64,000 nt of DNA from Planctomycetota bacterium (GCA_965223505.1 CBDCWP010000026.1:32001-96000), one strand, 5' to 3'. Shown: positions 5,805 to 57,903, numbered from the stretch's first letter. Program-made: numbers and translations. Notes: generated by a model from the sequence alone, not told the origin.

Positions 5805-7595
5805 TTGAATCTCGTGAAGACGCTCCGCACCCTTCTCCTCGAAAGCCGGCCGAGCTTCGCCATCCGCCGCGGCGCGGCGTTCTTCATCGAGGCGGTGCTC
5901 TGGGCCTCCGGCATCACGGCGTTGGAGGTCAGCGCGCGGTTCGCGAAGACGGACGCGTCCGATCTGATGGCCGTGGCATGCGGAACACTCTTCATCTTCG
6001 TGATGGTGCGCGCGTCCAAGTCGGGGTTGCTGATCGCGACGCGCCACATCGGCGGCGCGCTCGTCGCCCGCTGCAAGCAGGCCGTCAAGCGTCTGACCCC
6101 GCGGTATGCCGTTGCGTTTCGCTCGCGACCCGAGGTGCCGTCGAAACCGGATGCCGCGCTCGACGTGGCGCTCTGGATCGGCGCGGTCGCCGCGGCCACG
6201 TTCGTCGCCTTCGGCGCGCAGATCTTCGACGGGCTGCTGTTTCTCAAGACGGACGTCTCGTACACCGTGTACCTCGTCCTGCTGGCGTTCGTCTGGGCCG
6301 TCCTCGCATTCGTCGTGTTCCTCGGTGCCGTTGCCGGCGCGCAATGGGTGCAGCAGATGGGCGGAGGCACGCGCACGGCGCCCACGCTGATCCTGTGTCT
6401 GGGTTGGCTCGCGGGCATGCTCGTCACCGCCATCGTCCCGGGGATCGTTTCGGTTGCCGCGGTCGCCCTCTTCGCGGGCATCCGCATCCGTTGGCTGTGG
6501 CGGCGCCCGCGCACGCCGTATCTGTTCTGCCGGCGCGATGCCGACGGCTACCCGCGCACGGTCCGCGTCGGACACTATCTCGTACAGGCGTACTTCCTGA
6601 TCGCGCTGCTGCTGATGTCCGTCGTTGCCGTGGGCCAGTCGCAGCGGATGTGGAGCGTGGCGTTGCCGGAGGGGCCCTTCGCGCTGACGACCGGACTCGG
6701 GACGTTCGCAGCGGTGAGCGCCGTTTTCTTGATGGCCCGGGTGGGCGCGCACTTCCATCGGTTGACGGGCAGCCGGCACCCGCCGGAGCTGCCCCTACGA
6801 CCGACGGCCTGGAGTCGCGAGCCCGACGAAACCGACGAACGCGCCGGCGAGACGCAGTGGATGCGTGTCGCCCGCGAGCACGGCTGGACCGTGACGCGAG
6901 GACCGCGCGCGCCGTCGGACGGCTACGATCTCGTGGCGGGCGACCCGAGCGACAGCCGGCGCTTCGTGCCGCGACCGGACCAGGACGACGCCGATACGTT
7001 CTTCCAGCTCCAACGCCGCTTCCACGTCGTGATGCGCCGGCGCTTCTACCGGCCGTTCAAGCGCCTGTACAAGGCGCTTCGCGCGAAGCGTTCCTACCAG
7101 GGATCCGGCTTCCTGTTCTGCCCGCATGTCTGGCTCGTGGCGGGCGTCGTACGTGACGTGGACCCGCAGGCGGTCCGGGGCTCGGGTTCGCTGGTCGGGC
7201 CGAGCTACGTCGGACCGCTCTACGGCGATCTGTTCGAGCCGCGGGTACGCCGCTATCTCGGCAACGTGTTGCGCAAGCTCGAGATCGACATCGTGTTCTG
7301 GGAGGACGCCATCCGGTACCCGGAGCTTCGACGCGTGTTCGGCGTCGCGTTCGAGATCTACGACCAGGACCGCGCGCCGCTGCAAGCGCGGCACTTCGTC
7401 GGCGTGCCGAAGGTGCGCGTGATGATCCACGAAGAGGACGCGGAATCCGACGGCAGCGGCAGCAGTGCGGGCCGCCCGACGCAGGCACCGGGCTACGCAC
7501 GCGTGTTGGTGATCATGCGCGACCGCAGCGAGGACGAGGACGTCATGTCGCTCGATCCGGAAGATGCGTCGTTGCGCAGCCCCGCGCTCGTGTAG
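5805..7595 (+). CDS. Hypothetical multi-pass membrane protein with soluble C-terminal domain (start may be GTG 5814)
   Basis: Long ORF with about 8 hydrophobic segments followed by a charged domain of about 270 aa. TTGACA at 5777-5782 upstream. Confidence 0.7.
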   Translation: MNLVKTLRTLLLESRPSFAIRRGAAFFIEAVLWASGITALEVSARFAKTDASDLMAVACGTLFIFVMVRASKSGLLIATRHIGGALVARCKQAVKRLTPRYAVAFRSRPEVPSKPDAALDVALWIGAVAAATFVAFGAQIFDGLLFLKTDVSYTVYLVLLAFVWAVLAFVVFLGAVAGAQWVQQMGGGTRTAPTLILCLGWLAGMLVTAIVPGIVSVAAVALFAGIRIRWLWRRPRTPYLFCRRDADGYPRTVRVGHYLVQAYFLIALLLMSVVAVGQSQRMWSVALPEGPFALTTGLGTFAAVSAVFLMARVGAHFHRLTGSRHPPELPLRPTAWSREPDETDERAGETQWMRVAREHGWTVTRGPRAPSDGYDLVAGDPSDSRRFVPRPDQDDADTFFQLQRRFHVVMRRRFYRPFKRLYKALRAKRSYQGSGFLFCPHVWLVAGVVRDVDPQAVRGSGSLVGPSYVGPLYGDLFEPRVRRYLGNVLRKLEIDIVFWEDAIRYPELRRVFGVAFEIYDQDRAPLQARHFVGVPKVRVMIHEEDAESDGSGSSAGRPTQAPGYARVLVIMRDRSEDEDVMSLDPEDASLRSPALV

Positions 7596-7754
7596 ACCGC
7601 TCATTCTCGCGGGGATCCGCAATTCGCACCGCCGGCGCGCCGTCCTCGTCTCCATGGGCGGGAATTCGGGTATCCCGAACAACAGCCTTGCAGTAGTCTC
7701 TGCGCCCGATTCGACCGCGTCGAGAGGCCGGTCCAAACAAGGAGGAAACGCTCG

Positions 7755-7850
7755 ATGCGTAAGGTCATCACACTTCTCGTTCTCACCGTCGTCTGCTTCG
7801 GCATTGCGGCCTGCACCAGCGGCGGCGGCTGCTCGACCTGCGGCGGCTAG
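7755..7850 (+). CDS. 31-aa small lipoprotein/peptide MRKVITLLVLTVVCFGIAACTSGGGCSTCGG (not in ORF track)
   Basis: Strong AAGGAGG RBS at about 7739-7745. Basic N-terminus, hydrophobic core, IAAC lipobox, tandem TAG TAG stops, then a 15-bp hairpin. Confidence 0.75.
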   Translation: MRKVITLLVLTVVCFGIAACTSGGGCSTCGG

Positions 7851-7871
7851 TAGAACGAAATCGCTGGATTC

Positions 7872-7906
7872 GAAGGGTCACGTCTCCGCGCGAGACGTGG
7901 CCCTTC
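7872..7906. terminator. Hairpin between convergent genes, probably a bidirectional terminator
   Basis: GAAGGGTCACGTCTC-cgcgc-GAGACGTGGCCCTTC, a 15-bp stem with one G-U pair. Confidence 0.7.
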
Positions 7907-7971
7907 TTCAATTCGGGACGGATGCACGCAAGGCACGGCGAGCGCGTGGACGTGCCGCCGACCCGCAACGC

Positions 7972-10452
7972 CTAGCAGCACGCCTCGCCCGGCACGCAAC
8001 CGTTCTCCAACGTCGGGAACGGTTGCGTCGGATCCGTCACCAGGAACGACGACTGGTACGGCGCGACGCGCAGCTTCGCCGCCGTGTCCGTGCAGACCTC
8101 CACCGGTACGCCGCGCGGGAAGCGATGGCCCTCCTCGTCCACGACGGCCTCGAACGGCCCCAGGAACGTCGCCGTCTCGCCGATGTAGACGCACCCGGCC
8201 TTCTTCTCGTACTTCCACGCGCGGACCGTGACCGTCAGGTAGGTGACGTCTTCCACGCTGCGCCACGGCGCCCTGCGCAGCACCTCCAGACCGTGGAAGC
8301 CGGCCCGCCGCAGCATCGACAGGAAGGCGTCTTCCGAGAGCGCGCCGGAGAGGCACTCGCCCCACAACCTGCCGTCGACCTTCTGGTGCGGCGGCACCTC
8401 CCGGTCGGCGACGATGTCCGAGATGACCGCGCGGCCGTTGTCCTTCAAGACGCGCCAGATGCCCGCGAGCACGCGCTCCTTGTCCGGTGACAGGTTGATC
8501 ACGCAGTTGCTGGTCACGCAGTCGACGCTGGCCGCCTCGACGGGGATCTCCTCGAGGAATCCCTTGCGGAACTCCGCCACGTCGAAGCCGAGACGTTCGG
8601 CGACCAGCGGTTTGTTCTCCGCCGCGACCGCGAGCATGCGATCCGTCATGTCCACCCCGATCGCGCGTCCAGTCTCGCCGACCTTCTTCGCCGCGATGAA
8701 CACGTCGATGCCGGCGCCCGAGCCGAGATCGAGGTAGGTCTCGCCCGCTTGGAGTCCGCAGCGCGCGACCGGACTCCCGCATCCGTAGAAGCGGTCCAGG
8801 ACGGCCTGCGGAATGTGCGACGTGTCCTCCGGCTCGTAGCTCGTCGGACAGCACAGCTCCTCCTGCGGTTCCTCCGCGGCGTCGCCGTAGAACTCGCGCA
8901 CGACCTTGCGGGCGGCGTCGAGATCGTAGGAGAGCACGCATTCGCTGTGGCGAAGGCGCACGCCGGGCTCCGGCGCCGCGTCTACCTCCTTGTCGCCGCA
9001 CAGAACGGCGCCCTGCCCCATGGCGCGCTCGATGCGGGCCGCGTCGAACCCGGCTCGGTTGCGATGCGCCTTGCGCGCGTGCACCAACCGGTCGAACGCG
9101 TCGGCGATCATGCCCTTGTGCAGCTCGCAGTACGGGTCGTGCGCGAGGAACGACTTCTTGCCGAGCTGCGCGGGGCCGGCGTGCCAGGCGTGCTCGAGAT
9201 CGCCGCCGCCGCACAGGAACCGCAGCGAGCAGTCGCGGCACACGGCCTTCTCGGTGAGCGACAGACGGCGGATGTCCTCAAGCACGGTGCTCGTGCGCCA
9301 GATCGTCTCGAGCGACTGCTCGTTGAGGTCGCCGGCCCGAAGGTCCGACTCGCCGGCGAGCGCCGCACTCGGGTACACGCCCCCGTCGGCGTAGATGCAG
9401 AGACTCTCCCAGCCCATGTTGCTCAGGTCGTGGCGCGTCCCGGCGCGCGCGGTCAGCCGTTGCTCGACGGAGACGTCGTTGTCGACCGTGACGTCGAGCT
9501 CGTCGGCGACAGCCCGCACCTTGCGAACGACGTCCAGCACTCGTTCCGGCGCCAGCTCGAGGTCGTCGCCGGCCCGGCCGCGGTGGTGCAGCCAGAGCAG
9601 GTGGTGGTTCTTGACCCCCATGCCGGCGAGCAGGCGCGTGGTGTCGGGAAGATCCTCCGCATTCGACGCCATGATCACGGTCGTGACCGTGACCCGCAGG
9701 CCCGCATCGACCGCCTTGCGAATCCCGGCGTTGATCTTCTCGAACGATCCTTCGCCCCGGCACGGGTCGTTGAGCGCCGGCGTGCTGCCGTCGAGCGAGA
9801 TCTGCACGCGGAAGCGGTCGGTCGGGAAGTCCGAGAGCGTGCCGAGACGGTCGTCGGTGAACAGCATCCCGTTGGTCAGGACGCATACCTCGGTGTCGTC
9901 GTGACCGAGGATCCATGCGATGAGGCCGACCATGTCCTTGCGCAGGAAGGGCTCGCCGCCCGTGATGAACACGCGCTTCACGCCCAGATCGAGGCCCTGC
10001 CGGATCCACCCGCGCAATACGTCGGGCGCGACGCCTTTGTCGCCGTCCGGCCCGGACGACACGAGACAGTGCGCGCACGTCAGGTTGCACGAGTTGTTCG
10101 AGTGCACCCACAGCTCGCGCAGGTTCGCAAGCCGCAGACGCCCGGCTCGGCCCTCGTAGGCGCGCGCGGCGGACGGGGCGTGGCGCAGGAAGCCCTCGCG
10201 CAGGGCGTCGAGCGCGAAGCTGTGGACGTGCATCCACGCCTTGCCTGGGTCGTAGCCGAACGAGGAGCCGTACGACTGCGTGACATCGTCGAGGTTGCGG
10301 CGGCCGTCGAAGAGCGAAGCCAGTCGCTCACCCCGCTCGTCCGTCCCGATCCAGTGCGGTCCCTCGGGATCGATCAGGACCCGCGTGCCGTTCCGGCTCA
10401 GGCGGGCCATGGGGGGCGCGTGAAGCACGCTGGAGCCGTCGATCGTCGCCAT
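7972..10452 (-). CDS. PqqD/RRE-like + radical SAM + SPASM-like + ArsM-type methyltransferase fusion protein
   Basis: CNLTCAHC and TGGEP (radical SAM); CRDCSLRFLCGGG...C (SPASM-like); LCC, FYGCG, LDLGSGAG, SNCVINL and GECLSGA (ArsM/AS3MT); C-terminal CC. GAGGAGGAGG RBS. Confidence 0.85.
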   Translation of the reverse strand: MATIDGSSVLHAPPMARLSRNGTRVLIDPEGPHWIGTDERGERLASLFDGRRNLDDVTQSYGSSFGYDPGKAWMHVHSFALDALREGFLRHAPSAARAYEGRAGRLRLANLRELWVHSNNSCNLTCAHCLVSSGPDGDKGVAPDVLRGWIRQGLDLGVKRVFITGGEPFLRKDMVGLIAWILGHDDTEVCVLTNGMLFTDDRLGTLSDFPTDRFRVQISLDGSTPALNDPCRGEGSFEKINAGIRKAVDAGLRVTVTTVIMASNAEDLPDTTRLLAGMGVKNHHLLWLHHRGRAGDDLELAPERVLDVVRKVRAVADELDVTVDNDVSVEQRLTARAGTRHDLSNMGWESLCIYADGGVYPSAALAGESDLRAGDLNEQSLETIWRTSTVLEDIRRLSLTEKAVCRDCSLRFLCGGGDLEHAWHAGPAQLGKKSFLAHDPYCELHKGMIADAFDRLVHARKAHRNRAGFDAARIERAMGQGAVLCGDKEVDAAPEPGVRLRHSECVLSYDLDAARKVVREFYGDAAEEPQEELCCPTSYEPEDTSHIPQAVLDRFYGCGSPVARCGLQAGETYLDLGSGAGIDVFIAAKKVGETGRAIGVDMTDRMLAVAAENKPLVAERLGFDVAEFRKGFLEEIPVEAASVDCVTSNCVINLSPDKERVLAGIWRVLKDNGRAVISDIVADREVPPHQKVDGRLWGECLSGALSEDAFLSMLRRAGFHGLEVLRRAPWRSVEDVTYLTVTVRAWKYEKKAGCVYIGETATFLGPFEAVVDEEGHRFPRGVPVEVCTDTAAKLRVAPYQSSFLVTDPTQPFPTLENGCVPGEACC

Positions 10453-10640
10453 GGGGCCTCCTCCTCGACGCGGAAAGGACGTACGTTCCGGTCGTCCGCA
10501 TTGCAGCGGGGTGCGGATCCTACCGCACCCCCGACCACGGGTGCGCGGGGGCGGGGGACGGGGATCCCGGAAGCGCGGGGGGCATCGAGATCGGTCGACG
10601 GGGGGTTGAAACCGGGGTACACCCGAGCCGGAGGCCCCCC

Positions 10641-12110
10641 ATGCGAACGGTCCGACTCGTGCTGATTTTCGCCCTGCTCCTGGTTTCGACAGCGGCCGCG
10701 CACGCCGAGGAGCAACCGGCGACGCGACGCATCAAGATCCCGGCGGCCTCGCTCACCGTCGACGTGCCCGCCGACTGGACCGTCGACCAGTACGACGACG
10801 CGCCGCTCAAGCTGTCCAAGGGCAAGGCGGCGGTCTGGTTTCGAACCGTGGCGGCGGCGCCGGGCGGCTCGAACGACCTCCAGCGCCTGGCAGACCGCGT
10901 CGGCGCCGACTTGGCGAACCCGCCCAAGGTCGCTCGCTGGAAGGTGAAGGGCGCGTTCGGCGCGCGTGCGCTCTGGTACGAGGAGGAAGGACAAACGCGC
11001 TTCGCCGGCATCATCAACGTCACGGACAAGTCCGCGATTCACGTCGAGGCGTACATCAGCGAGCCGGAGCAAGACACCCGCAAGGCGCTGGAGGCGATCT
11101 TCGGGACCGTGAACACGACCGCGTTCGCGCACCCCGAGCGCCATGTGAGCTGGAACGATGGCTGGACGCTCGAGATTCCGTCCGACTGGACGCGGCAGCG
11201 GGACGAAGCCCACGCGAACCGGGTGCGCCTGCGCTCGCCCGGCCGATCCGGTGTCACCCTGCGCATCGATCGCGTCACCGAGAAGGCGGCCGCGGAGACG
11301 GCCGCGCAGCGCGTGCGCCGCATGATCGACGCGACGGCGGAGACGATCCGCGCGCGGGGCCTGAGCTTCTCGATCGAGGGCGAGGGCGGGGACATGGCCA
11401 TCGGCTCGACCGACTTGAAGCACGGCGATGCCGCGCCGTCGTTCCGCGGCCGCGCACGCATCTCACGGGAGGGCATGGCGCAGCCGATCTTCATGCACGT
11501 CGAGGCGCTCCTCGTCGGCCGCATCGAGCTGTTGCTCGCGTGCACGGGCGGCGCGAAGGATGTGCTCGAGGCGGCGCGCGCGACGGCGGCCACGCTGCAG
11601 GAAGGCACGCATCCGGGGCCCTATGAGATTCGGGTGCCGGCCCGGCCCGACCGCTTCGAGAGCAAGAAGGCGCCTCCGGTTCGCTTCGACCTGCCCGAGG
11701 GCTGGACGCTGGGCACGCCGCGAAGCCCCATGCGGCTGGCGGAGATCCAGGCGCCGGGCGGGCTGCACGGCTCCGTGTACTACTTCGGCGAGGGCCGGGG
11801 CGGCGGCCTCGAGCCCAACATCGAGCGCTGGAAGGGCCAGTGGACCGAGGCCGGCGAATGGAAGCGCGAGACGCTCGAGCTGGACGACGACATGCGGGCG
11901 ACGCTCTTGTCGGGTTTCGGCCGCTACGTCGCGCCGCTGCGGCCGGGGTTGCCGGACAAGCACGACAAGCCCGACCACGGGTTGCTGGCGGCGTATGTCG
12001 AGGTTCCCAAGGGCCCGCTCATGTTCAAGATCGTCGGGCCGAAGAAGGACGTCGAGAAGGCCGCGACCGCGTTTCGCAATTGGATTCGCAGCTTCAAGCC
12101 TGCGGACTGA
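10641..12110 (+). CDS. Secreted hypothetical protein with three P-x-(D/G)-W repeat modules
   Basis: Signal peptide ending AHA-EE; GGAGG RBS; VDVPADW, LEIPSDW and FDLPEGW; GGGLEPNIERW motif. Confidence 0.7.
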   Translation: MRTVRLVLIFALLLVSTAAAHAEEQPATRRIKIPAASLTVDVPADWTVDQYDDAPLKLSKGKAAVWFRTVAAAPGGSNDLQRLADRVGADLANPPKVARWKVKGAFGARALWYEEEGQTRFAGIINVTDKSAIHVEAYISEPEQDTRKALEAIFGTVNTTAFAHPERHVSWNDGWTLEIPSDWTRQRDEAHANRVRLRSPGRSGVTLRIDRVTEKAAAETAAQRVRRMIDATAETIRARGLSFSIEGEGGDMAIGSTDLKHGDAAPSFRGRARISREGMAQPIFMHVEALLVGRIELLLACTGGAKDVLEAARATAATLQEGTHPGPYEIRVPARPDRFESKKAPPVRFDLPEGWTLGTPRSPMRLAEIQAPGGLHGSVYYFGEGRGGGLEPNIERWKGQWTEAGEWKRETLELDDDMRATLLSGFGRYVAPLRPGLPDKHDKPDHGLLAAYVEVPKGPLMFKIVGPKKDVEKAATAFRNWIRSFKPAD

Positions 12111-19493: not shown

Positions 19494-20252
19494 CTAGGAT
19501 TCCTCCGGCAACACGCGCGTGAGCCGCGCCTTCAACCAGTCCGGAAAACGGTTGATCAACCGCGCCGCCACACGCATGCGCCACGGGAAATCGTACACCT
19601 TCTTCTTCTTTCGGATCGCCCTCGCGATCAGCACGGCCGCCTTCTCGGCCGACATCAGCAGCGGCATCCGGGTGGTGTTCTGATCGGTCATGGCCGTCTT
19701 CACGAATCCCGGTTGGATCGTGGTGCAGTGAATCCCCTTGTCCCGCAGCTCGATGCGGATCGACTCCATCCAGGACGACAGTCCGGCCTTCGTCGCGGAG
19801 TAGCCCCCGGAGCCTGGGGCCGTGACGTACGCGGCGAGGCTCGAGACGGCCACGATGTGCCCCGCGCCGCGCGCGAGCATGGAGGGCAAGACGGCCTCGA
19901 CCGCGTAGTGCGGTCCGAGCAGGTTGACGCGCACCATCGTCTCGTACCCCGCAGCGTCCGGTTCCTCGATGAAGCTGCTCAGTCCGACGCCCGCGTTGGC
20001 AACCAGCAGGTCCACCGGCCCGAGCGTCTCGGCCAGCGCGTGAAGCGCGCGCAGCGTTTCGTCGCGATCGCCTGCGTCGGCGACGGCGACGGCCGCCGTG
20101 CCCCCGTCGCGCTCGATCTCCTCGCGCAGCGTCTCGAGCAGCGGCTTGCGCCGCGCGGTCAGTCCGACCGCATAGCCCTCGCCGGCCAGCTCCTTGGCCA
20201 GCGCCCTGCCGATGCCGGCCGACGCGCCGGTCACGACGGCGACTCGGCTCAC
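19494..20252 (-). CDS. SDR family oxidoreductase
   Basis: TGASAGIG, NAG and YSATK. GTG start overlaps the upstream stop. Confidence 0.9.
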   Translation of the reverse strand: MSRVAVVTGASAGIGRALAKELAGEGYAVGLTARRKPLLETLREEIERDGGTAAVAVADAGDRDETLRALHALAETLGPVDLLVANAGVGLSSFIEEPDAAGYETMVRVNLLGPHYAVEAVLPSMLARGAGHIVAVSSLAAYVTAPGSGGYSATKAGLSSWMESIRIELRDKGIHCTTIQPGFVKTAMTDQNTTRMPLLMSAEKAAVLIARAIRKKKKVYDFPWRMRVAARLINRFPDWLKARLTRVLPEES

Positions 20253-21172
20253 GCCGGCGGTCCCTTCGGCAACGGCGGCGCCTGGTACACGCGGCTGCGC
20301 AACGGGTGCGCGACGTGTTCCGCGATGCCGTGGCTCGCTTCGCGCAACCGCTCGAGCTCGACGCCCGTCCGGATGTCGAGGCCGTCGAGCAGGAACACGA
20401 TGTCCTCCGTCGCCAGATTGCCCGAAGCCCCCGGCGCGAACGGACATCCGCCCAGCCCCGCGGCGCTGGCATCGAACGCCGTGATGCCGTAGCGCAACCC
20501 CTCGAGCACGTTGGCCGCGGCCATGCCGCGCGTGTCGTGCAGGTGCAAGACGAGCCTGCGCACGTCGATCGTCTCGAGGAGGACGTCGAGCAGACGCGCG
20601 ATGTCTCCCGGCGTCGCGGCGCCGATCGTGTCCCCGACGGAGACCTCGTCGCACCCCAGCTCGAGCAGACGCTCGACGACGTCGAGTGTCGCGGCGGGAT
20701 CGACCGGCCCCTCGTACGGACACGCGACCGCCACGCTGACGTAGCCGCGCAGCGCCAAGCCGCTCTCGCGCACGGTCTTCGCCACCGGCTCGAAGTTGCT
20801 CAGCGACTGGTGGATCGTCGCGTTCACGTTGCGTTGGTTGAAGGTCTCGGTCGCGGCGGTGAATACCGAGACCTTGCCGACCTCGACGTCGAGCGCGCGT
20901 TCCAGACCGCGCATGTTCGGTACGAGCGCGCCGTAGGTCACGCCGTCGGGCGGCGGACCGAGCATCCGAAAGAGCTCCTCGGCGTCGGCGAGCTGCGGCA
21001 CGCGGTCGGGGCGGACGAACGACGAGACCTCGATGTCGCGCAGACCCGCGGCGGCAAGACGCCTCACGAACGCGGCCTTCGCGTCCGTCGGGACCGGCTC
21101 GACCTCGTTCTGCAGCCCGTCGCGCGGCCCGACTTCCGTCAGCGTCACGCGCGAGGGCAAGGTTCTGCTCAT
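20249..21172 (-). CDS. liuE: Hydroxymethylglutaryl-CoA lyase
   Basis: EVGPRDGLQNE, GDTIG, HLHDTRG and GLGGCPFAPGASGNLATED. Confidence 0.93.
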   Translation of the reverse strand: MSRTLPSRVTLTEVGPRDGLQNEVEPVPTDAKAAFVRRLAAAGLRDIEVSSFVRPDRVPQLADAEELFRMLGPPPDGVTYGALVPNMRGLERALDVEVGKVSVFTAATETFNQRNVNATIHQSLSNFEPVAKTVRESGLALRGYVSVAVACPYEGPVDPAATLDVVERLLELGCDEVSVGDTIGAATPGDIARLLDVLLETIDVRRLVLHLHDTRGMAAANVLEGLRYGITAFDASAAGLGGCPFAPGASGNLATEDIVFLLDGLDIRTGVELERLREASHGIAEHVAHPLRSRVYQAPPLPKGPPA

Positions 21173-21690
21173 TGGACCGCCTCGGCCGTCTGAAACGAGA
21201 CGACCTCCTCGCCCAATTCTACGCGGTCCCCCGTTTGGAAGTGGACGGCGTCCACCACGAGATCGCGCGGCGCGCGCACGACGTACTCCATCTTCATCGC
21301 CTCGACCACGAAGAGCTCGGCGCCGGAGACGACCTCGGCGCCCGCATCGACCGACATCTTGGCGACGACGCCGCTCATGGGGCTGGCGGCGGACTTGGCG
21401 GCTGCGCCCGACGCCGCAGCCGCCGCGCCGGGCTCGGCCAGCTGCAGCCGCACGCTGGCGCCGTCGATGCACACCCACGCCGTGTCGCCGCGCGTGACGA
21501 CCGTCGCGCGCAGCGTGCGTTCGCCGACGCGCACCTCGACGCGGTGCGCGCCGAGCCGGCGCGCGGCCGCCTCGACGTCGTGGTCCGCGTCTCCGATGCG
21601 GATCGAACCCGCGAGCATCCCGTCCGCCTGGCGCAGCTCCGCCTCTGCCGCGTCCGCACCGTCGAGGTAGACCCGCCGGAGGCCGCTCAC
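21169..21690 (-). CDS. Biotin carboxyl carrier subunit (BT-like + biotinyl domain)
   Basis: SPMSG and the EAMKME biotinylation motif. GTGA overlap with the upstream gene. Confidence 0.88.
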   Translation of the reverse strand: MSGLRRVYLDGADAAEAELRQADGMLAGSIRIGDADHDVEAAARRLGAHRVEVRVGERTLRATVVTRGDTAWVCIDGASVRLQLAEPGAAAAASGAAAKSAASPMSGVVAKMSVDAGAEVVSGAELFVVEAMKMEYVVRAPRDLVVDAVHFQTGDRVELGEEVVSFQTAEAVQ

Positions 21691-23219
21691 GTGTCACCGC
21701 CCATGCGGAAGCCCGCCAGCGTGTCCCACGGCGACGGCAGCTCGATGCCGCCGTTCGTCCCGGCCGGCGACGACCCGGCGCGGCCTGCCAACAGCTCGTC
21801 GGCGGCGGCGCACAGCACGGCGTCGAGCAGATCGACGTGACCGGTGGCGAGCTCGGGCGCGATGTCGTCCAGCGCGTCGATGCGCAGTCCGCCCGGCTCG
21901 AACGCGTCGTGGGCGAGCAACGCCCGCAGGAACGCGACGTTGTTGGCGACACCGGCGATCACCATGTCGCGCAACGCCGTGTCCAGTCGGCGCCGCGCCT
22001 CCTCGCGCGTCTCGCCGTGCGCGACGACCTTCGCGAGCAGCGGGTCGTAGAACGGCGAAACCTCCATGGTCGTCATCAACGCCGAGTCCACGCGGATCCC
22101 CGGCCCCTGCGGTTCCGACGCATGTTCGATGCGTCCGGCGGACGGCAAGAACCCCTGCGCCGGATCCTCGGCGTACACGCGCGCCTCGATGGCGTGGCCG
22201 CGCGCCGAGAACCGGCTGGGATCGGGCAGCGCCTCCCCTGCCGCGACCCGCAGCTGCCAGGCGACGAGGTCGACGCCGAAGCACATCTCGGTGACGGGGT
22301 GCTCGACCTGCAGCCGCCGGTTCACCTCCAGGAAGAAGAACGAGCCGTCCGGCTGCATCAGGAACTCGACGGTGCCGGCGCCGCGGTATCCCAGCGCGCG
22401 AACGGCATCGGCGCCGGCGCCATGAAGCGCGGCGCGCACGTCGTCGCTCAAACCGGGGGCGGGGCACTCCTCGATCACCTTCTGGTGACGGCGCTGTAGC
22501 GAGCAGTCGCGTTCGCCGAGCACCACGACGCCGTCGTGCGCGTCGCACAGCACCTGCACCTCGACGTGTCGCGCAGGCTGCACGATGCGCTCGAGATACA
22601 GCTCGGTGTTGCCGAACGCGCCGCCGGCCTCGCGCCGCGCACCTTCCGCGGCGGCGAGCAGCGCGCCCGCTTCCTCGACGCGGCGCATGCCCTTGCCGCC
22701 GCCGCCCGCGCTGGCCTTGAGCAGCAACGGATAGCCGGTCGCGTTCGCCGCCGCCGTCAACGCCGCGTCGTCCGCCGGCACGGCATCGAGCGGCCCGGGA
22801 ATCACGGGCACGCCGGCGTCCGACACGCGTCGCTTGACGACGAGCTTGTCGTTCGAACCTTCCAGCACGTCGGCCGGCGGACCGATGAACGTGATGCCGG
22901 CGTCGCTGCACGCCCGTGCGAACACGGCGTTTTCCGACAGGAACCCGTAGCCCGGATGCACCGCGTCGGCGCCGGTCGCGCGCGCGGCGCGAACGACGGC
23001 CTCCACGTCGAGGTACGACGCGGTCGCCTCCGCGGGTCCGATGAGGACCGCTTCGTCGGCCTCGAGCACGTGGCGTTGTTCGGCGTCCGCTTCGCTGTAG
23101 ACGGCTACCGACGGGATGCCGAGGGTGCGACACGTGCGCATCACGCGCAGGGCGATCTCCCCACGGTTCGCAACGAGCACCTTGCGGAAGGGGTTGCCGT
23201 TGCCGGATCGAGACGTCAT
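21687..23219 (-). CDS. Biotin carboxylase (methylcrotonyl-CoA carboxylase alpha, BC part)
   Basis: KVLVANRGEIA, HPGYGFLSEN, GGGGKGMR, ERDCSLQRRHQK, RLQVEHPVTE and YDPLLAK. Confidence 0.92.
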   Translation of the reverse strand: MTSRSGNGNPFRKVLVANRGEIALRVMRTCRTLGIPSVAVYSEADAEQRHVLEADEAVLIGPAEATASYLDVEAVVRAARATGADAVHPGYGFLSENAVFARACSDAGITFIGPPADVLEGSNDKLVVKRRVSDAGVPVIPGPLDAVPADDAALTAAANATGYPLLLKASAGGGGKGMRRVEEAGALLAAAEGARREAGGAFGNTELYLERIVQPARHVEVQVLCDAHDGVVVLGERDCSLQRRHQKVIEECPAPGLSDDVRAALHGAGADAVRALGYRGAGTVEFLMQPDGSFFFLEVNRRLQVEHPVTEMCFGVDLVAWQLRVAAGEALPDPSRFSARGHAIEARVYAEDPAQGFLPSAGRIEHASEPQGPGIRVDSALMTTMEVSPFYDPLLAKVVAHGETREEARRRLDTALRDMVIAGVANNVAFLRALLAHDAFEPGGLRIDALDDIAPELATGHVDLLDAVLCAAADELLAGRAGSSPAGTNGGIELPSPWDTLAGFRMGGDT

Positions 23220-24004
23220 TGCGTCCATCGCGGCGGGCGTTCCTCCAGGAAGGCGCTCAACCCCTCGCGGCCGTCGTCGGACGCGCGGGCGTCGGCGATG
23301 GCCTCGCGCGCCAGCTCGAGCGAGCGCTCGTGATCGGCCTCGCGAATCTCGTGCAGGAGCGCCTTGGCGCCGCGCACGCCGCCAGGCGCGCACTCCTTCA
23401 GGCGCTGCACGACGAGACCGACCGCCGCGTCCATCTGGCTCTGAGGCACGACGTGGTGCACGAGGCCGATCTGCTGCGCCCGCTGCGCGCCGAAACGCTC
23501 CGCGGTCAGGAAGAGCTGACGCGTGTGGCTGAAGCCGATCTTGCGCAGCACGTACGGCGAGATGACGCCCGGCACCAGACCAAGACGCACCTCGGAGAAG
23601 GCGAACTTGGTGTCCGACTCGGCCACGGCGACGTCGCACAGCGCCACGAGGCCCGCGCCGCCACCGAAGGCGTGGCCGTGGATGCGCCCGACGACGGGCA
23701 CGGGGCACCGGTCGATGCGCTCGAAGGCGCGCTGGAACGCCGCGGCGTCGGCGAGGTTCTCTTCGCGCGAGTAGTCGGCGACGCGCCGCATCCACTCGAC
23801 GTCCCCGCCCGCGCAGAAGCTCGCGCCGCTGCCGCCGATGATGATGACGCGGACGGCGTCGTTCGCGCCGAGCTCCGCGAACACGCTGTCGAGCCTGGCG
23901 GCGATCTGGTCGTCGAACGCGTTGCGCTTCTCGGGGCGATTGAGCCGCACGTGGGCGACGCCGTCGCGAACGACCGACTGCACTGCTTCGTCGACGCTGC
24001 TCAT
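23216..24004 (-). CDS. liuC: Enoyl-CoA hydratase (methylglutaconyl-CoA hydratase-like)
   Basis: LNRPEKRNAF, FCAGGD, GGGAGL, FSEVRLGLVP and EGLSAFLEER. Lies inside the liu operon. Confidence 0.85.
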   Translation of the reverse strand: MSSVDEAVQSVVRDGVAHVRLNRPEKRNAFDDQIAARLDSVFAELGANDAVRVIIIGGSGASFCAGGDVEWMRRVADYSREENLADAAAFQRAFERIDRCPVPVVGRIHGHAFGGGAGLVALCDVAVAESDTKFAFSEVRLGLVPGVISPYVLRKIGFSHTRQLFLTAERFGAQRAQQIGLVHHVVPQSQMDAAVGLVVQRLKECAPGGVRGAKALLHEIREADHERSLELAREAIADARASDDGREGLSAFLEERPPRWTQ

Positions 24005-24006
24005 GG

Positions 24007-25620
24007 CTACATCCGGTAGACCGGCGGACGCACGGGCGCCTCCGGTGCGTAGCGGGTCACGGCGAACGCCAACCCGAGGATGTCGCGCGTCTGGGTGGGC
24101 TCGATGACGCCGTCGTCCCAGAGCCGCGCGCTGCCGTAGTACGGGTGGCCCTCTCTCTCGTACTTGGCGCGGATCGGATCGGTCAGCGCCGACTCCTCTT
24201 TCGCGCTCAACGCGTCCTTGCCTTCCGACGCGAGCTGCTGGCGCTTGACGGTGAGCAGTGTCTGCGCCGCTTGCTCGCCGCCCATCACGCTGATGCGCGC
24301 GTTCGGCCACGTGAACAGGAAGCGCGCGTCGTACGCGCGACCGCACATGCCGTAGTTCCCGGCGCCGAACGACGATCCGATGATGACCGTGATCTTGGGC
24401 ACGTTGACGGTCGCGACGGCCTGCACCATCTTCGCGCCGTCCTTGGCAATGCCGCCGTTCTCGGCTTCCTTGCCGACCATGAACCCGGTGACGTTCTGCA
24501 GGAAGAGCAACGGGATGCCGCGCTGCCCGCAGATCTCGATGAAGTGCGCGCCCTTCTGCGCCGAGCTCGAGAACAGCACGCCGTTGTTCGCGACGATGCC
24601 GATCGGCATGCCGTGCAGGCGCGCGAAGCCGGTCACGAGCGTGGTGCCGTAGCGCGCCTTGAACTCCTGGAAGCGGCTGCCGTCCACGATTCGCGCGATG
24701 ACCTCGCGCACGTCGTACGGCGTGCGCACGTCCTTGGGCACGATGCCGAGCAGCTCCTCGGCGTCGTACTTGGGCGGCTCGACCGCGGCGACGTCCATGT
24801 GCGCCGGCGGATGCGGGTTGAGCGACTCGAGAATCGAGCGGAGCTTGCGCAGCGCGTCGTCGTCGTCCTCGGCGAAGTGGTCGGCGACGCCGCTGATGCG
24901 GGTGTGCACGTCGGCGCCGCCCAGTTCCTCGGCGGTGACCTCTTCGCCGGTCGCGGCGCGTACGAGCGGCGGACCGGCCAGGAAGATCGTCCCCGTGCCC
25001 TTCACGATGACGGCTTCGTCGCTCATGGCGGGCACGTAGGCGCCGCCCGCGGTGCACGACCCCATGACCGCCGCGATCTGCGGCACGCGCATCGACGACA
25101 GCACCGCCTGGTTCCGGAAGATGCGGCCGAAGTGGTACTTGTCGGGGAAGACGTCGTCCTGCAGCGGCAGGAACGCGCCCCCGGAGTCGACGAGGTAGAC
25201 CGTGGGCAGGTGGTTCTCGATCGCGACCTCTTGCGCGCGAACGTGCTTCTTCACGGTCAGCGGCAGGTAGGTGCCGCCCTTCACGGTCGCGTCGTTGGCC
25301 ACGACCATGACCTCGTTGCCGTGGACGCTGCCGATGCCGGTCACGACCCCCGCGCACGGCACGTCGGTGTCCGGGTACACCTCGTGCGCGGCCAGACACG
25401 AAAGCTCGAGGAACGGGCTGCCCGGGTCCAGGAGCCGCTCGATGCGCTCGCGCGCGAGCAGCTTGCCGCGCTCATGGTGGCGCTCGCGGGAACGGGGGCT
25501 GCCCCCCTGCCGGAGCCGGCCTTGGAGGTTGCGAAGGTCCGCCCGGAGCGCATCGTTGTGCGTCCGGCGGGATGCGAACGTCTCGTCGGACGTGTCGACC
25601 TGGGTCGGGAGAACCTCCAT
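24007..25620 (-). CDS. liuB: Methylcrotonyl-CoA carboxylase beta (carboxyltransferase) subunit
   Basis: [40 protein letters not shown] and ARLWDDG. Confidence 0.92.
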
Positions 25621-25684
25621 GCGGGCGGCATGGTACCCGCAACGGCCCTGGGCCCGAGGTTGAGACCGCCGTACTCTTGCGCCC

Positions 25685-26440
25685 ATGGCCGCAGCCGACC
25701 ATGCCGGCAACGACGTCGCGCTCGTCACGGGCGGCGGCGGCGGTGTCGGGTTCGCGTGCGCGGAAGCGCTGGTCGTGGCGGGGTACCGGCCGGTCCTGTT
25801 GGGACGCCAGGGCGACCGGCTCGAAGCGGCGCGCGACCGGCTGGACGGCGACGTCGAGGTAATCGTCGCGGACGTCACCGATCGCGCGGGCATGCAGCGG
25901 GCGGTGGCGTGGGTCGAGGACCAGGTCGGCCCGCCGCTGATCCTGGTCAACGCGGCCGGCATGGCCGCGTCGGCCCCGCTGCTCCCGCCCGACGACGAGC
26001 TCTGGCGGCGCACGCTCGACGTGAACCTCACCGGTACGTGGATCGCGTCCACGGCGTGCCTGCCGGCAATGCGCGCGGCGAGGCGCGGATTCATCTGCAA
26101 CATCGCGAGCACGGCCGCGCTGCAGGGCTATGCGTACACGGCCGCCTACGTCGCGAGCAAGCACGGCGTGCTCGGCCTCACCCGCGCGATGGCCGAAGAC
26201 CTTCAGGGCAAGGGCGTGCGCGTCAATGCGATCTGTCCCGGCTTCCTGGACACGCCCATGACCGATCGCACGGTCCAGAACATCATCGCGCAGACGGGCA
26301 TGAGCGCGGAGGACGCACGCGAGACGCTCGCGAAGATGAACACGAGCGGACGGCTGATCCGGCCGGAGGAGGTCGCCGCCCAGATGCTATCGCTGCTTCG
26401 AGACGACCGGCAACACGGCGCTTCGATTCGCCTCGATTGA
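25685..26440 (+). CDS. SDR family oxidoreductase (3-hydroxyacyl-CoA/3-hydroxybutyrate dehydrogenase-like)
   Basis: [25 protein letters not shown] and [10 protein letters not shown]. Confidence 0.88.
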
Positions 26441-26470
26441 TAGGATGCGCGCCCTGCAGGGAGTACCACC

Positions 26471-27265
26471 ATGGCCGAGCTGCCCTTTGGCTACGACATC
26501 GCGGACGGCATCGCGACGATCACGTTGAACCGGCCCGAACGCCTGAACGCGCTGACATTCGACATCTACCGGCGCTTGACCGACATCCTCTACCGCCTGC
26601 GCTTCACGAAAGAGGTGAACGTCGTCGTCATCACCGGCGAGGGCAAGGGCTTCTGCGGCGGCGGCGACGTGCACGCGATCATCGGTGAGCTCCTCAAGAA
26701 GGACACGCACGACGTCATCGAGTTCACGCGGATGACAGGCGAGCTCATCGAGAACATGCGCCGACTCGACAAGCCGATCATCGCGGCGATCAACGGCACG
26801 GCCGCCGGCGCAGGCGCCGTCATCGCGCTCGCGGCGGACTTCCGCATCATGGTCCCCAAGGCCAAGTTCCACTTCCTGTTCAACCGCGTCGGGTTGACCG
26901 GGGCGGACATGGGCGCCGCGTGGCTTCTGCCGCGCGTCGTGGGACTCGGCCGCGCGACGGAGTGGCTCATGCTCGGCTCGGGGATCGACGCAGAGACGGC
27001 GAAGAGCGCGGGACTGGCGACGCAGATCGTGAGCGACGACGAGCTCATGGAGGCCGCCAACGAGCTGGCGCTGCGGCTGGCCAACGGACCGACGCTGGCG
27101 CACTCGATGACGAAGCGCATGCTCAACAACGAGCTTTCGATGGATCTCTCGTCTGCCATCGAGGCCGAGGCGATCGCGCAGGCGATCCTGCTGCAGGCGG
27201 ACGATCACCGGCTCTTCTACGAGGCCTACACCAAGGGCGAAGCGCCCAAGTTCACGGGACGTTGA
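26471..27265 (+). CDS. Enoyl-CoA hydratase family protein
   Basis: LNRPERLNALTF, FCGGGDV, AAGAGA and LFNRVGLTGADMGAAWLLPR. Confidence 0.9.
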   Translation: MAELPFGYDIADGIATITLNRPERLNALTFDIYRRLTDILYRLRFTKEVNVVVITGEGKGFCGGGDVHAIIGELLKKDTHDVIEFTRMTGELIENMRRLDKPIIAAINGTAAGAGAVIALAADFRIMVPKAKFHFLFNRVGLTGADMGAAWLLPRVVGLGRATEWLMLGSGIDAETAKSAGLATQIVSDDELMEAANELALRLANGPTLAHSMTKRMLNNELSMDLSSAIEAEAIAQAILLQADDHRLFYEAYTKGEAPKFTGR

Positions 27266-27266
27266 C

Positions 27267-28442
27267 TTGCCCCCTACCGACTACACGACCGAGTACGGAC
27301 TGAACGAGGCCGAGGCGGCGTGGCGCAACGCCGCCCGCAAGTTCGCCGCGGAAGCGCTGGCCCCCGTCGCCCGGCAGGCAGACCGCGACGGCGCGTTCTC
27401 CCGCGCGCTGGTCGAGCAGCTCGGGGAAGCCGGTCTGCTCGCGGCCACGTTGCCGCGCGACGCCGGCGGCGGCGGCGCCTCCACGCTCTCGGGCTGCCTG
27501 ATCGCCGAGGAGATCGGCGCGATCGACGGCAGCATGCGCGGCTTCATGGCGGTGCAGATCGGGCTGGTGCTCTCACCCTTGATCCGTCACGGCAGCCACG
27601 AGCAGGTCGACGCCTGGGTCGCCGACCTCATGGCCGGCCGCGCGATCGGCGCCTACGGACTCACCGAGCCGGGCGCGGGCAGCGACGTCGGCGCGATCGC
27701 GACCACGATCGAGCCGGACGGCGATGACGTCGTGATCAACGGCGAAAAGGTCTGGATCACGAACGGCGGCATCGCCGACTTCGTGCTGGTCTTCGGCACC
27801 GTCGATCCGTCGGCGAAGACGCGCGGTCTCGAGTGCTACCTCGTTCCCGGGGACACGCCGGGACTCGCGCGGGATCCGATGCCGGGCCGCGAGCTCGGCC
27901 ATCGCGCCTCGGACCACGCGCACCTGCGCTTCGAGAACGTGCGCGTGCCCAAGTCGCAGCGCGTCGGTCCGGCGCGCGGCGGGTTCGCGGTGGCGATGGA
28001 CGCGCTCGGCGTGGGCCGGCTGAACGTGGCCGCGGGCGCGGTCGGCATCCACCGCGCGTGCCTCGACGCGAGCGTAGCGTTCGCGCGCGAGCGGCGGCAG
28101 TTCGGCAGGCGCATCGGCGATTTCCAGCAGATCGGCGCGCAGCTGGCGGACATGGCGGTCGAGCTGCGCGCGGCGCGCCTGCTCACGCATCACGCGGCGC
28201 GATTGACGGACGCCGGCGTCGACGCCACGGCGCACGTGAGCGCCGCCAAGCTCTACGCCACCGAAGCGGCGCTGCGCGCTTCCACGAACGCGATCCAGAT
28301 TCACGGCTCGCGCGCGTACTCCGACGAGCTTCCGATCGAGCGCTTCCATCGCGACGTGATCGCGCTGACCATCTACGAAGGCACGAGCCACATCCAGCGC
28401 GTGATTCTCGCGCGCTCGCTACTGGGACGGGACGAGGCATGA
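27267..28442 (+). CDS. Acyl-CoA dehydrogenase
   Basis: LTEPGAGSD, NGEKVWITNG, RRQFGRRI, QIHG and IYEGTSHIQR. Confidence 0.92.
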   Translation: MPPTDYTTEYGLNEAEAAWRNAARKFAAEALAPVARQADRDGAFSRALVEQLGEAGLLAATLPRDAGGGGASTLSGCLIAEEIGAIDGSMRGFMAVQIGLVLSPLIRHGSHEQVDAWVADLMAGRAIGAYGLTEPGAGSDVGAIATTIEPDGDDVVINGEKVWITNGGIADFVLVFGTVDPSAKTRGLECYLVPGDTPGLARDPMPGRELGHRASDHAHLRFENVRVPKSQRVGPARGGFAVAMDALGVGRLNVAAGAVGIHRACLDASVAFARERRQFGRRIGDFQQIGAQLADMAVELRAARLLTHHAARLTDAGVDATAHVSAAKLYATEAALRASTNAIQIHGSRAYSDELPIERFHRDVIALTIYEGTSHIQRVILARSLLGRDEA

Positions 28443-44682: not shown

Positions 44683-44758
44683 GGGCACGTCTCCGGGGGG
44701 GCCACTGTGAGGAAAGAGAGCAAGGAACTGCGCAGGGTAAGCGCGTTTCCCAAACGTC

Positions 44759-44798
44759 AAAAAAGAGACCCGGCGGCGTCCGGGGAAGCCGCCGGGTC
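44759..44798 (-). terminator. Intrinsic terminator after tRNA-Arg
   Basis: GACCCGGCGGC...GCCGCCGGGTC stem followed by TCTTTTTT on the minus strand. Confidence 0.8.
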
Positions 44799-44806
44799 CA
44801 CGAAAC

Positions 44807-44881
44807 TGGTACGCCCATAGGGATTCGAACCCCAATCCCCGGCTCCGGAGGCCGGTGCTCTATCCATTGAGCTATGGGCGC
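44807..44881 (-). tRNA. tRNA-Arg(CCG)
   Basis: GCGCCCATAGCTCAATGGATAGAGCACCGGCCTCCGGAGCCGGGGATTGGGGTTCGAATCCCTATGGGCGTACCA folds into a cloverleaf with anticodon CCG and encoded CCA. Confidence 0.96.
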
Positions 44882-57585: not shown

Positions 57586-57632
57586 GGTGCGGCTCCTTGG
57601 GAACGAGGGGGCGGATTGAATACACGCCGCAG

Positions 57633-57648
57633 CGCAAAGCGCAGGCCA
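57633..57648 (-). promoter_or_regulatory. Possible sigma54 promoter of the PASTA gene
   Basis: Minus strand TGGCCTGCGCTTTGCG with canonical GG-to-GC spacing. Confidence 0.4.
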
Positions 57649-57903
57649 TATGGCGCGGGTCTTCTCGTCGCCTGCGAGGCGGGCCGGTCGGGAACCGCAG
57701 CGAATGGGGGTCGCCGGGAGGGTGCAAAAGCGGTGCAATTGCGGCGCTTCCGCAGGCTGCGTCCCCGTCCGGAGACGCCGTTCTGGGACGCCGGGACGCT
57801 GCGAGCCGGACGCCGGAGCGGCCACCAGCGCAGACGGCAGACCGCTCCCCAGGCCTCTCCCCTGGGGCCCCCCAAGTTGACATCGCGCGAAGCCGGCCGG
57901 TGG

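Follow-up and report, generated by a model that had tools for sequence, protein, structure and literature searches.

A protein joining an RRE, radical SAM and SPASM-like module to an ArsM-type methyltransferase in a Planctomycetota bacterium, a candidate enzyme of organoarsenical biosynthesis

The fusion protein and its domains

The stretch of DNA considered here (the window) comprises 64,000 nucleotides from a Planctomycetota bacterium (GCA_965223505.1, CBDCWP010000026.1:32001-96000), and on its reverse strand, from position 7972 to 10452 with the stop codon included, the window translation contains a single intact and uninterrupted open reading frame (ORF) of 826 aa. From the translation, domain matches and a model made with AlphaFold2 (AF2), the encoded protein is a fusion of four modules, namely an N-terminal RRE (RiPP recognition element, RiPPs being ribosomally synthesised and post-translationally modified peptides), a radical S-adenosylmethionine (SAM) core, a SPASM-like domain and an ArsM-type methyltransferase. 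All of the cysteine motifs that an earlier note on this DNA had picked out are present in the translation, that is C122-x3-C126-x2-C129, LCC at 533-535, YGCG at 556-559, SNCV at 648-651, GECL at 698-701 and a terminal C819-x5-C825-C826. Three Pfam domains exceed their cut-offs, Radical_SAM at aa 120-274 (E 1e-22), SPASM at aa 346-408 (E 8.7e-8) and Methyltransf_31 at aa 569-718 (E 1.4e-28), and, judged by sequence comparison, chance could not account for such domain E-values or for an end-to-end alignment with over 100 homologues.

The start codon is taken as the ATG at 10452, which is consistent with the N-termini of homologues in the family alignment and is preceded by a Shine-Dalgarno-like GAGGAGGAGG (10457..10466, reverse strand) that was read from the sequence and ends 4 nt before the ATG. 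The GC content at third codon positions (GC3) is 0.89, similar to that of the surrounding genes. A search of positions 7400-10900 against Rfam gave no match, and a promoter and terminator scan around the gene made no call.

The N-terminal domain (aa 1-100; 10153..10452, reverse strand, as are all the modules described below) had been called PqqD-like in the earlier note, and modelling confirms an RRE fold. When the N-terminal 112 residues were modelled by AF2 with 50 homologous domains the predicted local distance difference test score (pLDDT) was 92.1, and the best match to this model found by Foldseek in the PDB was TbiB1 with a bound leader peptide (E 2.3e-4, TMt 0.69-0.74), with PqqD itself (5sxy; E 8.8e-4, TMt 0.72), the lasso B1 protein 6jx3 and the PbtF RRE following, and McbB, ThcOx, TigE and CteB lower in the list. 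The Pfam PqqD model (PF05402) matches the window protein below its cut-off (aa 25-88, E 0.18, 12.6-15.8 bits against 23.4), and matches the N-terminal domains of 34 of 50 relatives at E<=1, the best at 2e-7. The most conserved positions of the domain are P32, W34 and G41; in the model the first two lie in or just before the beta strand E33-37, and G41 opens the helix that follows.

The radical SAM core (aa 113-335; 9448..10116) carries the cluster-binding CX3CX2C motif as C122/C126/C129 at nucleotides 10066-10089 and a GGEP motif at 165-168, and is matched by PF04055 with 81.5 bits against a cut-off of 29.5. Sequence matches of this half in the PDB are SkfB, PqqE and CteB, and the closest folds to the core are those of CteB (TMt 0.71-0.72) and anSME (TMt 0.74-0.77). 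Against NCBIfam the N-terminal half lists many radical SAM/SPASM families, none of them close to its own cut-off, and look-alikes of this half in the ESM Atlas were generic radical SAM/SPASM clusters only.

The following SPASM-like domain (aa 340-445; 9118..9435) also passes its Pfam cut-off (PF13186, 32.8 bits against 21.5). A canonical SPASM domain holds two auxiliary clusters by means of seven cysteines arranged as CX9-15GX4C ... CX2CX5CX3C ... C. In the family alignments C352, C405, C408 and C414 are conserved, the fourth cysteine of CX2CX5CX3C is replaced by D418, which is Asp in at least 90% of members, C373 has become Ala in the window protein and C442 is Ser in some members; the full pattern of seven is thus absent from the window protein, and from the alignments one auxiliary cluster with an open site or a non-Cys ligand appears plausible.

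A linker (aa 446-512; 8917..9117) holding the invariant C505 connects this half to the methyltransferase and is the part modelled with the lowest confidence, the means of ten-residue pLDDT blocks falling to 59-74 in its second half. The full-length AF2 model has a pLDDT of 90.9 and is less confident only at about aa 480-540 and in the last eight residues; its predicted template modelling score (pTM) is 0.88, and the domains are therefore predicted to stand in a fixed arrangement. Matches of the whole model in the PDB fall into two groups, ArsM structures on the one hand and RRE-radical SAM-SPASM maturases on the other, the latter headed by CteB over approximately 470 columns and continuing with SkfB, SuiB, anSME, TigE, ChlB and PqqE.

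With such a front half the fusion might be read as a RiPP-type maturase, in which the RRE would bind a leader peptide, the radical SAM/SPASM part would modify a Cys-containing core and the ArsM-like half would methylate that core or load a metalloid onto it. The confirmed RRE fold, whose best matches are RREs with bound leader peptides, speaks for it, as does the resemblance of the N-terminal half to the sactipeptide synthases CteB and SkfB, and to SuiB. Furthermore, the placement of P32, W34 and G41 suggests a maintained binding surface, and the RRE is retained even in proteins of the family in which the order of the halves is reversed (methyltransferase-RRE-radical SAM-SPASM). The likeness to the known maturases (CteB 5WGG/5WHY, SkfB 6EFN, SuiB 5V1T, and PqqE with PqqD) thus extends to all three modules, the RRE, the radical SAM core and an auxiliary-cluster domain; the fusion differs from them in its incomplete SPASM cysteine pattern and in the ArsM that is fused on, and that ArsM keeps the arsenite-binding cysteines, the fourth of them probably, for which a plain peptide methyltransferase would have no need. 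Together with the gene context described below, this leads us to consider a RiPP-type maturase very unlikely. The RRE probably binds something, and nothing encoded nearby qualifies.

The C-terminal half consists of an ArsM-type As(III) SAM methyltransferase (aa 513-747; 8212..8916), with LCC (C534/C535), YGCG (C558), DLGSGAG, SNCV (C650) and GEC (C700), and of an ArsM C-terminal domain (7975..8211) with the extra cysteines C754 and C787 and the tail C819-x5-C825-C826. The best NCBIfam models for this half are all arsenite methyltransferases. PRK11873 (arsenite methyltransferase) matches aa 515-735 with E 2.3e-66 and 224.1 bits against a cut-off of 263, the arsinothricin ArsM model NF040538 matches with E 5e-56 and 190.4 bits against 500, its positions 167-355 of 356 falling on aa 638-826 and so reaching the last residues of the protein, and the arsenosugar ArsM model NF038099 gives 161.6 bits against 400. 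The stand-alone ArsM that is linked to ArsS in the Thermodesulfobacteriota locus L066, described below, likewise stays under these three cut-offs, with 250, 208 and 176 bits.

A profile of 127 family members finds CmArsM (4fr0/4kw7) with E 4.5e-65, profile positions 513-809 aligning with chain residues 22-345, which is the whole ArsM body of three domains including the C-terminal one. Foldseek places the full-length model on 6cx6/4fr0 at E 1e-22 with 34-36% identity, and on human AS3MT (8xt7) too. When the two sequences are aligned by phmmer (4kw7/4fr0), C558, C650 and C700 coincide with C72, C174 and C224 of CmArsM. The pair C534/C535 stands 23-24 residues before C558, compared with 28 for C44 in CmArsM, and HMMER puts C44 3-4 positions before the pair, which by alignment is probably its equivalent. 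PMC5552862 regards C72, C174 and C224 as essential parts of the arsenite-binding site, counts C44 as the remaining conserved cysteine, and asks for at least three of the four. In the SAM-binding motif DLGSGAG, D575, G577 and G579 are invariant in 127 sequences and L576, S578 and G581 at least 90% conserved.

From these alignments the C-terminal half is a true ArsM-type domain, as the earlier note had it, and taken alone it very probably has ArsM function. It differs from ArsM/AS3MT as known (CmArsM, PDB 4FR0, 4FSD, 6CX6) in the 500 aa of RRE, radical SAM and SPASM-like sequence in front, in its scores under the NCBIfam cut-offs, in lying outside an ars operon, and in C505, C754, C787 and the terminal C-x5-CC, which have no counterpart at the aligned positions of CmArsM. 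The tail is modelled with a pLDDT below 50 and is also found in the stand-alone ArsS-linked ArsM and in an ArsS-ArsM fusion. The idea that the RRE binds the Cys-rich tail of its own enzyme was set aside, as these RRE-less proteins carry the tail too.

Such differences are the basis for a further reading, in which the same architecture acts on something other than arsenic, such as a different soft metalloid (Sb, Se or Te) or a cofactor or lipid with a thiol group, or carries out a different C-As chemistry, for example by abstracting an H atom from a substrate that is a sugar, a lipid or bound to a carrier, and not by adenosyl transfer. The scores under the cut-off of every NCBIfam ArsM model, the extra conserved cysteines, the atypical SPASM motif (D418 for Cys, with C373 and C442 variable) and the presence of selenoprotein variants of ArsM-like enzymes among the NCBIfam matches would all suit it, as would genes for DedA/VTT and GT87 proteins and, in Vicinamibacterales, for a Tes-like lipid radical SAM protein near the fusion. 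On the other side, the three cysteines placed on As(III) ligands of CmArsM are kept throughout the family alignment, every one of the nearest solved structures is that of an As(III) methyltransferase, and the exchange with ArsS described below points specifically to the ArsS reaction. A different substrate or chemistry seems to us rather doubtful, if worth keeping in view.

A large family and its gene neighbourhoods

The fusion family is large, conserved and already in the databases, albeit unnamed. A word-indexed search for homologues at E<=1e-3 returned 688 clusters at 90% identity; in its best 120 rows, the query included, 117 align over 95% or more of the query, with identities of 49-90%, and an exhaustive search of representatives gave 997 proteins at E<=1e-30. 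In 127 aligned members C122, C126, C129, C505, C535, C558, C650 and C700 are invariant, and C352, C405, C408, C414, C534, C754, C787, C819, C825 and C826 are conserved in at least 90%. Since all of the invariant residues are kept in the window protein it shows no sign of decay. The earlier note's supposition that similar fusions exist in databases with none characterised agrees with what was found: homologues carry generic names, either "methyltransferase domain-containing protein" or "radical SAM protein with 4Fe4S-binding SPASM domain", the fusion protein scores under the cut-off of every NCBIfam model, and no paper on a radical SAM/SPASM-ArsM fusion turned up in a literature search that extended to papers outside subscription.

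Other architectures accompany the standard one. Among the matches are the reversed proteins mentioned above, a variant of approximately 1000-1080 aa in which the same fusion is extended by a C-terminal DUF5714, a fusion of DUF2064 to ArsM, and genuine ArsS (radical SAM plus DUF3641) fused to ArsM in either order; fusion of ArsM with a radical SAM partner is thus a recurring theme. DUF5714 follows the ArsM half in a sub-family comprising P0129, P0136, P0138, P0144, P0153 and P0211 (E 1e-41 to 1e-60), of which P0211 has DUF5714 and ArsM without the radical SAM half, and DUF5714 may be another part of the same pathway. At two loci (L047, 7473-10421, and L023, 10791-12500) the fusion is split or truncated into separate ORFs, which could be due to a frameshift, an assembly error or a genuinely split form.

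In a FastTree phylogeny of 184 methyltransferase domains the stand-alone ArsMs linked to ArsS are nearest to methyltransferase domains of fusions from similar organisms. Architecture labels are scattered over the tree, the FUS label requiring 22 changes, and many of the proteins are fragmentary metagenome sequences; no conclusion on the origin of the fusion is drawn from it, and the nearest-neighbour observation alone is used.

Gene neighbourhoods were taken from a scan of species-representative genomes, which contain 521 relatives, so that the fusion is common. The best 80 loci were examined with flanks of at most 10 kb; all come from metagenome-assembled genomes (MAGs) of uncultured bacteria of soils, sediments and groundwater, and some split or missing genes may consequently be assembly artefacts. 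Flanking ORFs of at least 70 aa were clustered, representatives of the clusters were scanned with Pfam and NCBIfam, and neighbours were counted at the 65 loci with a full-length fusion ORF. By phylum label these loci are Acidobacteriota (26), Gemmatimonadota (15), Planctomycetota (6), Nitrospirota (5), Elusimicrobiota (5), Myxococcota (2), Omnitrophota (2) and one each of Chloroflexota, Spirochaetota and Thermodesulfobacteriota, with one further locus labelled "archaeon".

A recurrent set of neighbours, mostly co-directional with the fusion, is associated with it in 10 phylum labels. At 24 of the 65 loci there is a glycosyltransferase of family 2 (GT2) whose representatives pass TIGR04283, "arsenosugar biosynthesis glycosyltransferase" (226.8 and 233.5 against 182), and at 23 a DUF2064 protein whose representatives pass TIGR04282 (192-210 against 134). 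The other main partners are a VTT/DedA membrane protein (Pfam VTT_dom, 28 loci), a MerA-like FAD disulfide oxidoreductase (20 loci; NF004991, 610 against a cut-off of 620) and a DUF547 protein (Pfam DUF547, 16 loci); thioredoxin-like (Trx-like) and DsbD-like proteins are encoded at 11 and 4 loci respectively, and genes for extracytoplasmic function (ECF) sigma factors, GT87 and DUF3179 proteins also recur, less often. At least one of the two transferases is present at 31 loci of the 65 and at least one of the five main partners at 50, and for the 42 loci where the flanks extend 3 kb or more in both directions these figures are 24 and 36. ArsS was found beside the fusion at none of the 65 loci within the fetched flanks. 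The genes that recur around the fusion encode transferases, redox proteins or membrane proteins, and not the proteases, transporters and precursors typical of RiPP clusters, which is a further point against a peptide maturase.

In six loci a large radical SAM protein is encoded 0.2-3.5 kb downstream of the fusion (L015 13719-15806, L021 8231-10312, L024 16026-18071, L026 3066-5216, L027 14691-16835 and L048 13863-16013), five of the hosts being labelled Vicinamibacterales or Vicinamibacteria and one Acidobacteria. This protein has the tetraether lipid synthase Tes (NF045702, 310 bits with a cut-off of 450) and TrsS as relatives, and its position may reflect lineage synteny or a link to lipids.

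An indication of what the front half may do comes from Thermodesulfobacteriota. Three loci of this phylum (L066, L067 and L071) match the query over aa 514-822 only, and there the gene order is a stand-alone ArsM of the same subfamily, ArsS, TIGR04282, Trx and DsbD; the ArsS of L066 passes TIGR04167 with 414.9 bits against a cut-off of 300, and none of the three loci has a member of the RRE-radical SAM-SPASM family. In L007, also from Thermodesulfobacteriota, the order is fusion, TIGR04282, Trx, DsbD and the next gene, collinear with L066, and no ArsS is found in the fetched flanks. The C-terminal 322 aa of the L007 fusion are 66% identical to the ArsM of L066, and the genes that follow are 47% (TIGR04282), 56% (Trx), 73% (DsbD) and 75% (the next gene) identical. 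One locus therefore has the fusion where the other has ArsM plus ArsS, which is the pattern expected if the RRE-radical SAM-SPASM module and ArsS are functional substitutes.

A plainer reading is that the enzyme serves detoxification or volatilisation only, the methyltransferase being an ordinary ArsM which the radical SAM part supports under anoxia, perhaps through an additional radical methylation, or else through redox or activation chemistry, with no new class of product. The strong ArsM homology of the methyltransferase half would agree with it, as would the occurrence of the family in anaerobic and soil lineages, where it is common (Nitrospirota, Thermodesulfobacteriota, anammox Planctomycetota and Acidobacteriota), and the fact that the gene stands alone both in the window and in L001, the closest relative at genome level, a Planctomycetota MAG in which the fusion is 80% identical and which is syntenic over the whole fetched stretch. 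However, a Pfam scan of the approximately 50 ORFs of the window detected no ArsR, ArsC, Acr3 or ArsB-like protein, so that the gene lies outside any detoxification operon there, as had been noted earlier, and the conserved neighbour clusters of the relatives likewise contain no ars resistance gene. The recurrent partners are instead the two transferases that accompany ArsS, and in the collinear operons the fusion occupies the position of ArsM plus ArsS. We therefore think it unlikely that detoxification is the whole of its function.

A proposed route to organoarsenicals

The earlier note had offered an organoarsenic or a peptide-modifying system as alternatives, and the neighbourhoods of the relatives support the former and leave the latter without backing. 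We would give even chances to the fusion being a bifunctional enzyme of organoarsenical (arsenosugar-type) biosynthesis in which the RRE-radical SAM-SPASM half stands in for ArsS. It is the present analysis that connects the family with the arsenosugar-type genes and proposes that ArsS has been replaced, and we infer every chemical step of the route set out here.

From its aligned ligands the methyltransferase half would hold As(III) on C558, C650 and C700, along with C534/C535, and SAM-dependent methylation would yield methylated trivalent arsenic. The other half would, going by gene context, do the job of ArsS, a second SAM being cleaved reductively at the [4Fe-4S] cluster of C122/C126/C129 to form a further C-As bond. 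The likeliest reaction would be the ArsS reaction itself, 5'-deoxyadenosylation of dimethylarsenite (DMAs(III)), with the SPASM-like auxiliary cluster handling the electron; ArsS adds a 5'-deoxyadenosyl group to DMAs(III) to give 5'-deoxy-5'-dimethylarsinoyl-adenosine (DDMAA) in a redox-neutral reaction, according to PMC13598754. Fusion of the two halves would let a toxic and oxygen-sensitive trivalent intermediate pass directly from one active site to the other, and the flexible Cys-rich tail, common to the family and to ArsS-linked ArsMs, may help with this hand-over. The adjacent TIGR04282 and TIGR04283 transferases of most relatives would go on to process this product, with a MerA-like flavoprotein, Trx/DsbD, DedA/VTT and DUF547 proteins as likely thiol-redox and membrane partners.

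Comparison with ArsS (TIGR04167) itself brings out both sides of this proposal. The fusion in relatives shares with ArsS its partners, ArsM, TIGR04282, TIGR04283 and Trx/DsbD, as well as its position in the operon, and ArsS too is naturally fused to ArsM in some proteins. In contrast, homology between the two is limited to the radical SAM core, at 22-40 bits, and the fusion has no DUF3641, having in its place an N-terminal RRE and a SPASM-like C-terminal extension; TIGR04167 does not appear among the best 25 NCBIfam matches listed for the fusion protein.

A number of points weigh against the proposed route, the first being this lack of homology beyond the core (22 bits for an ArsS fragment against the fusion, and approximately 40 for the family's radical SAM profile against ArsS), when the structures closest to the radical SAM half are those of the RRE peptide maturases CteB, SkfB and SuiB and when it is hard to see what an RRE would do in the chemistry of small molecules. 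The methyltransferase half, for its part, falls under all three NCBIfam ArsM cut-offs. A direct search found the partner families to be absent from all ORFs of the window, its only return apart from the fusion being a weak match of Trx type at 40285-42291, and L001 is equally without partner genes, so that the pathway context for this host is borrowed from distant relatives; in the lineage of the window the enzyme either needs no such partners or draws on genes located in another part of the genome. The neighbourhood sample consists of the best 80 of 521 relatives, all of them MAGs, and at the 42 loci with sufficient flanks neither transferase is present in 18 and none of the five partners in 6, whilst an ArsS could be encoded beyond the 10-kb flanks. 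Finally, the "arsenosugar" names of TIGR04282 and TIGR04283 presumably derive from co-occurrence with ArsS and not from assays, and TIGR04282 is labelled hypoth_equivalog.

A bolder version, which we put forward as a long shot, is that the RRE-radical SAM-SPASM half is a second and independently evolved C-As-forming radical enzyme with a chemistry unlike that of ArsS and a product class that has yet to be described. An auxiliary cluster with an open site (C405, C408, C414 and D418) might for example hold the arsenical, the RRE might dock a protein or peptide carrier, and products might include an envelope-linked arsenosugar, an arsenolipid or a protein-bound arsenical, made by widespread uncultured Acidobacteriota, Gemmatimonadota and Nitrospirota of soils and sediments and by anammox Planctomycetota.

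The other system with which the fusion may be compared is that of arsinothricin, where a C-As-forming radical SAM enzyme, ArsL, works with an ArsM. The C-terminal part of the fusion resembles that ArsM up to its last residues, though at a score (190 bits) well under the cut-off of its model, and the transferase-rich context of the relatives fits the arsenosugar type better. ArsL is described in a preprint (bioRxiv 10.1101/2024.02.01.577332) as a non-canonical radical SAM enzyme that transfers an aminocarboxypropyl group.

Should the fusion indeed substitute for ArsS, it would be a third C-As-forming radical SAM enzyme, unrelated to the others, built on a peptide-maturase scaffold and covalently joined to its ArsM. 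To our knowledge only two radical SAM enzymes form C-As bonds, ArsS for arsenosugars and ArsL for arsinothricin. More organisms would then be expected to make complex organoarsenicals, and surveys of the arsenic cycle that count arsM would need to separate biosynthetic from detoxifying copies. The protein would also offer a self-contained system of two active sites in which to study how a methyltransferase passes a toxic trivalent arsenical on to a radical SAM site, and it raises the question of what purpose an RRE serves in an enzyme for which no peptide substrate is evident.

A small reading frame beside the gene and the remainder of the window

Between the end of the fusion gene and its convergent neighbour there is an ORF of 31 aa (7755..7850, forward strand), convergent with the enzyme gene and 121 nt from its end, with AGGAGG eight bases upstream. 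Its product would have a basic N-terminus, a hydrophobic stretch, a lipobox-like IAAC and, after the lipobox cysteine, a Gly/Cys-rich tail of 11 residues. The earlier note had drawn this peptide into the system, and a Cys-rich ORF with a good ribosome-binding site so close to the gene would be a possible substrate were the enzyme a RiPP maturase. That role did not hold up. The ORF lies on the opposite strand and is missing from the syntenic L001, where the two convergent genes abut; its lipoprotein-signal look would direct the product out of the cytoplasm, and the pattern of a lipobox plus cysteines occurs in 1 of 3251 small ORFs near 77 loci, the one being the window's own. At the same 77 loci no conserved small ORF of 18-90 aa was found within 2.5 kb of the fusions, and small-ORF clusters that did recur were rejected as low-complexity, or as apparent other-frame or antisense readings of neighbouring genes. 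The 31-aa ORF is accordingly judged to be outside the system, and could be either a genuine micro-lipoprotein that belongs to this lineage or an ORF arisen by chance.

In the interval where this ORF and the fusion gene converge there is also a 15-bp imperfect inverted repeat with a 5-nt loop (7872-7906). The 71-nt stretch around it has a minimum free energy of -27 kcal/mol, with a z of -2.4 against shuffles. The terminator scan did not call this repeat because it has no T-run, and it may be a bidirectional terminator.

The genes that flank the fusion are a convergent one for a membrane protein of 596 aa (5805-7595, forward strand) and a divergent one for a secreted protein of 489 aa (10641-12110, forward strand), both without a Pfam match. 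Farther away there are genes for a DUF2891 protein, a gamma-glutamyltranspeptidase, a flavin reductase, an AMP-binding enzyme and a Ser/Thr kinase, and the rest of the window holds housekeeping and catabolic genes.

Several other features of the window are recorded here. An IS481-type transposase ORF (54544-55515, forward strand; LZ_Tnp_IS481, rve and rve_3) is located between clpB and a PASTA-repeat gene, in a region where GC3 is lower. From 55636 to 57903 on the reverse strand there are 755 codons stop to stop with seven PASTA repeats as the sole Pfam matches, and the lack of a kinase or penicillin-binding domain by Pfam in this frame makes for an unusual architecture. A reverse-strand frame of 787 codons stop to stop at 42496-44859 has the GreA/GreB N- and C-terminal domains at aa 634-783 only, the preceding residues, approximately 630 in number, having no Pfam match. 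The region 20249-28442 encodes an HMG-CoA-lyase-like protein, a biotinyl carrier/BT domain, a biotin carboxylase, a carboxyltransferase, a short-chain dehydrogenase/reductase (SDR), an enoyl-CoA hydratase and an acyl-CoA dehydrogenase, and is probably a cluster for leucine/isovalerate catabolism.

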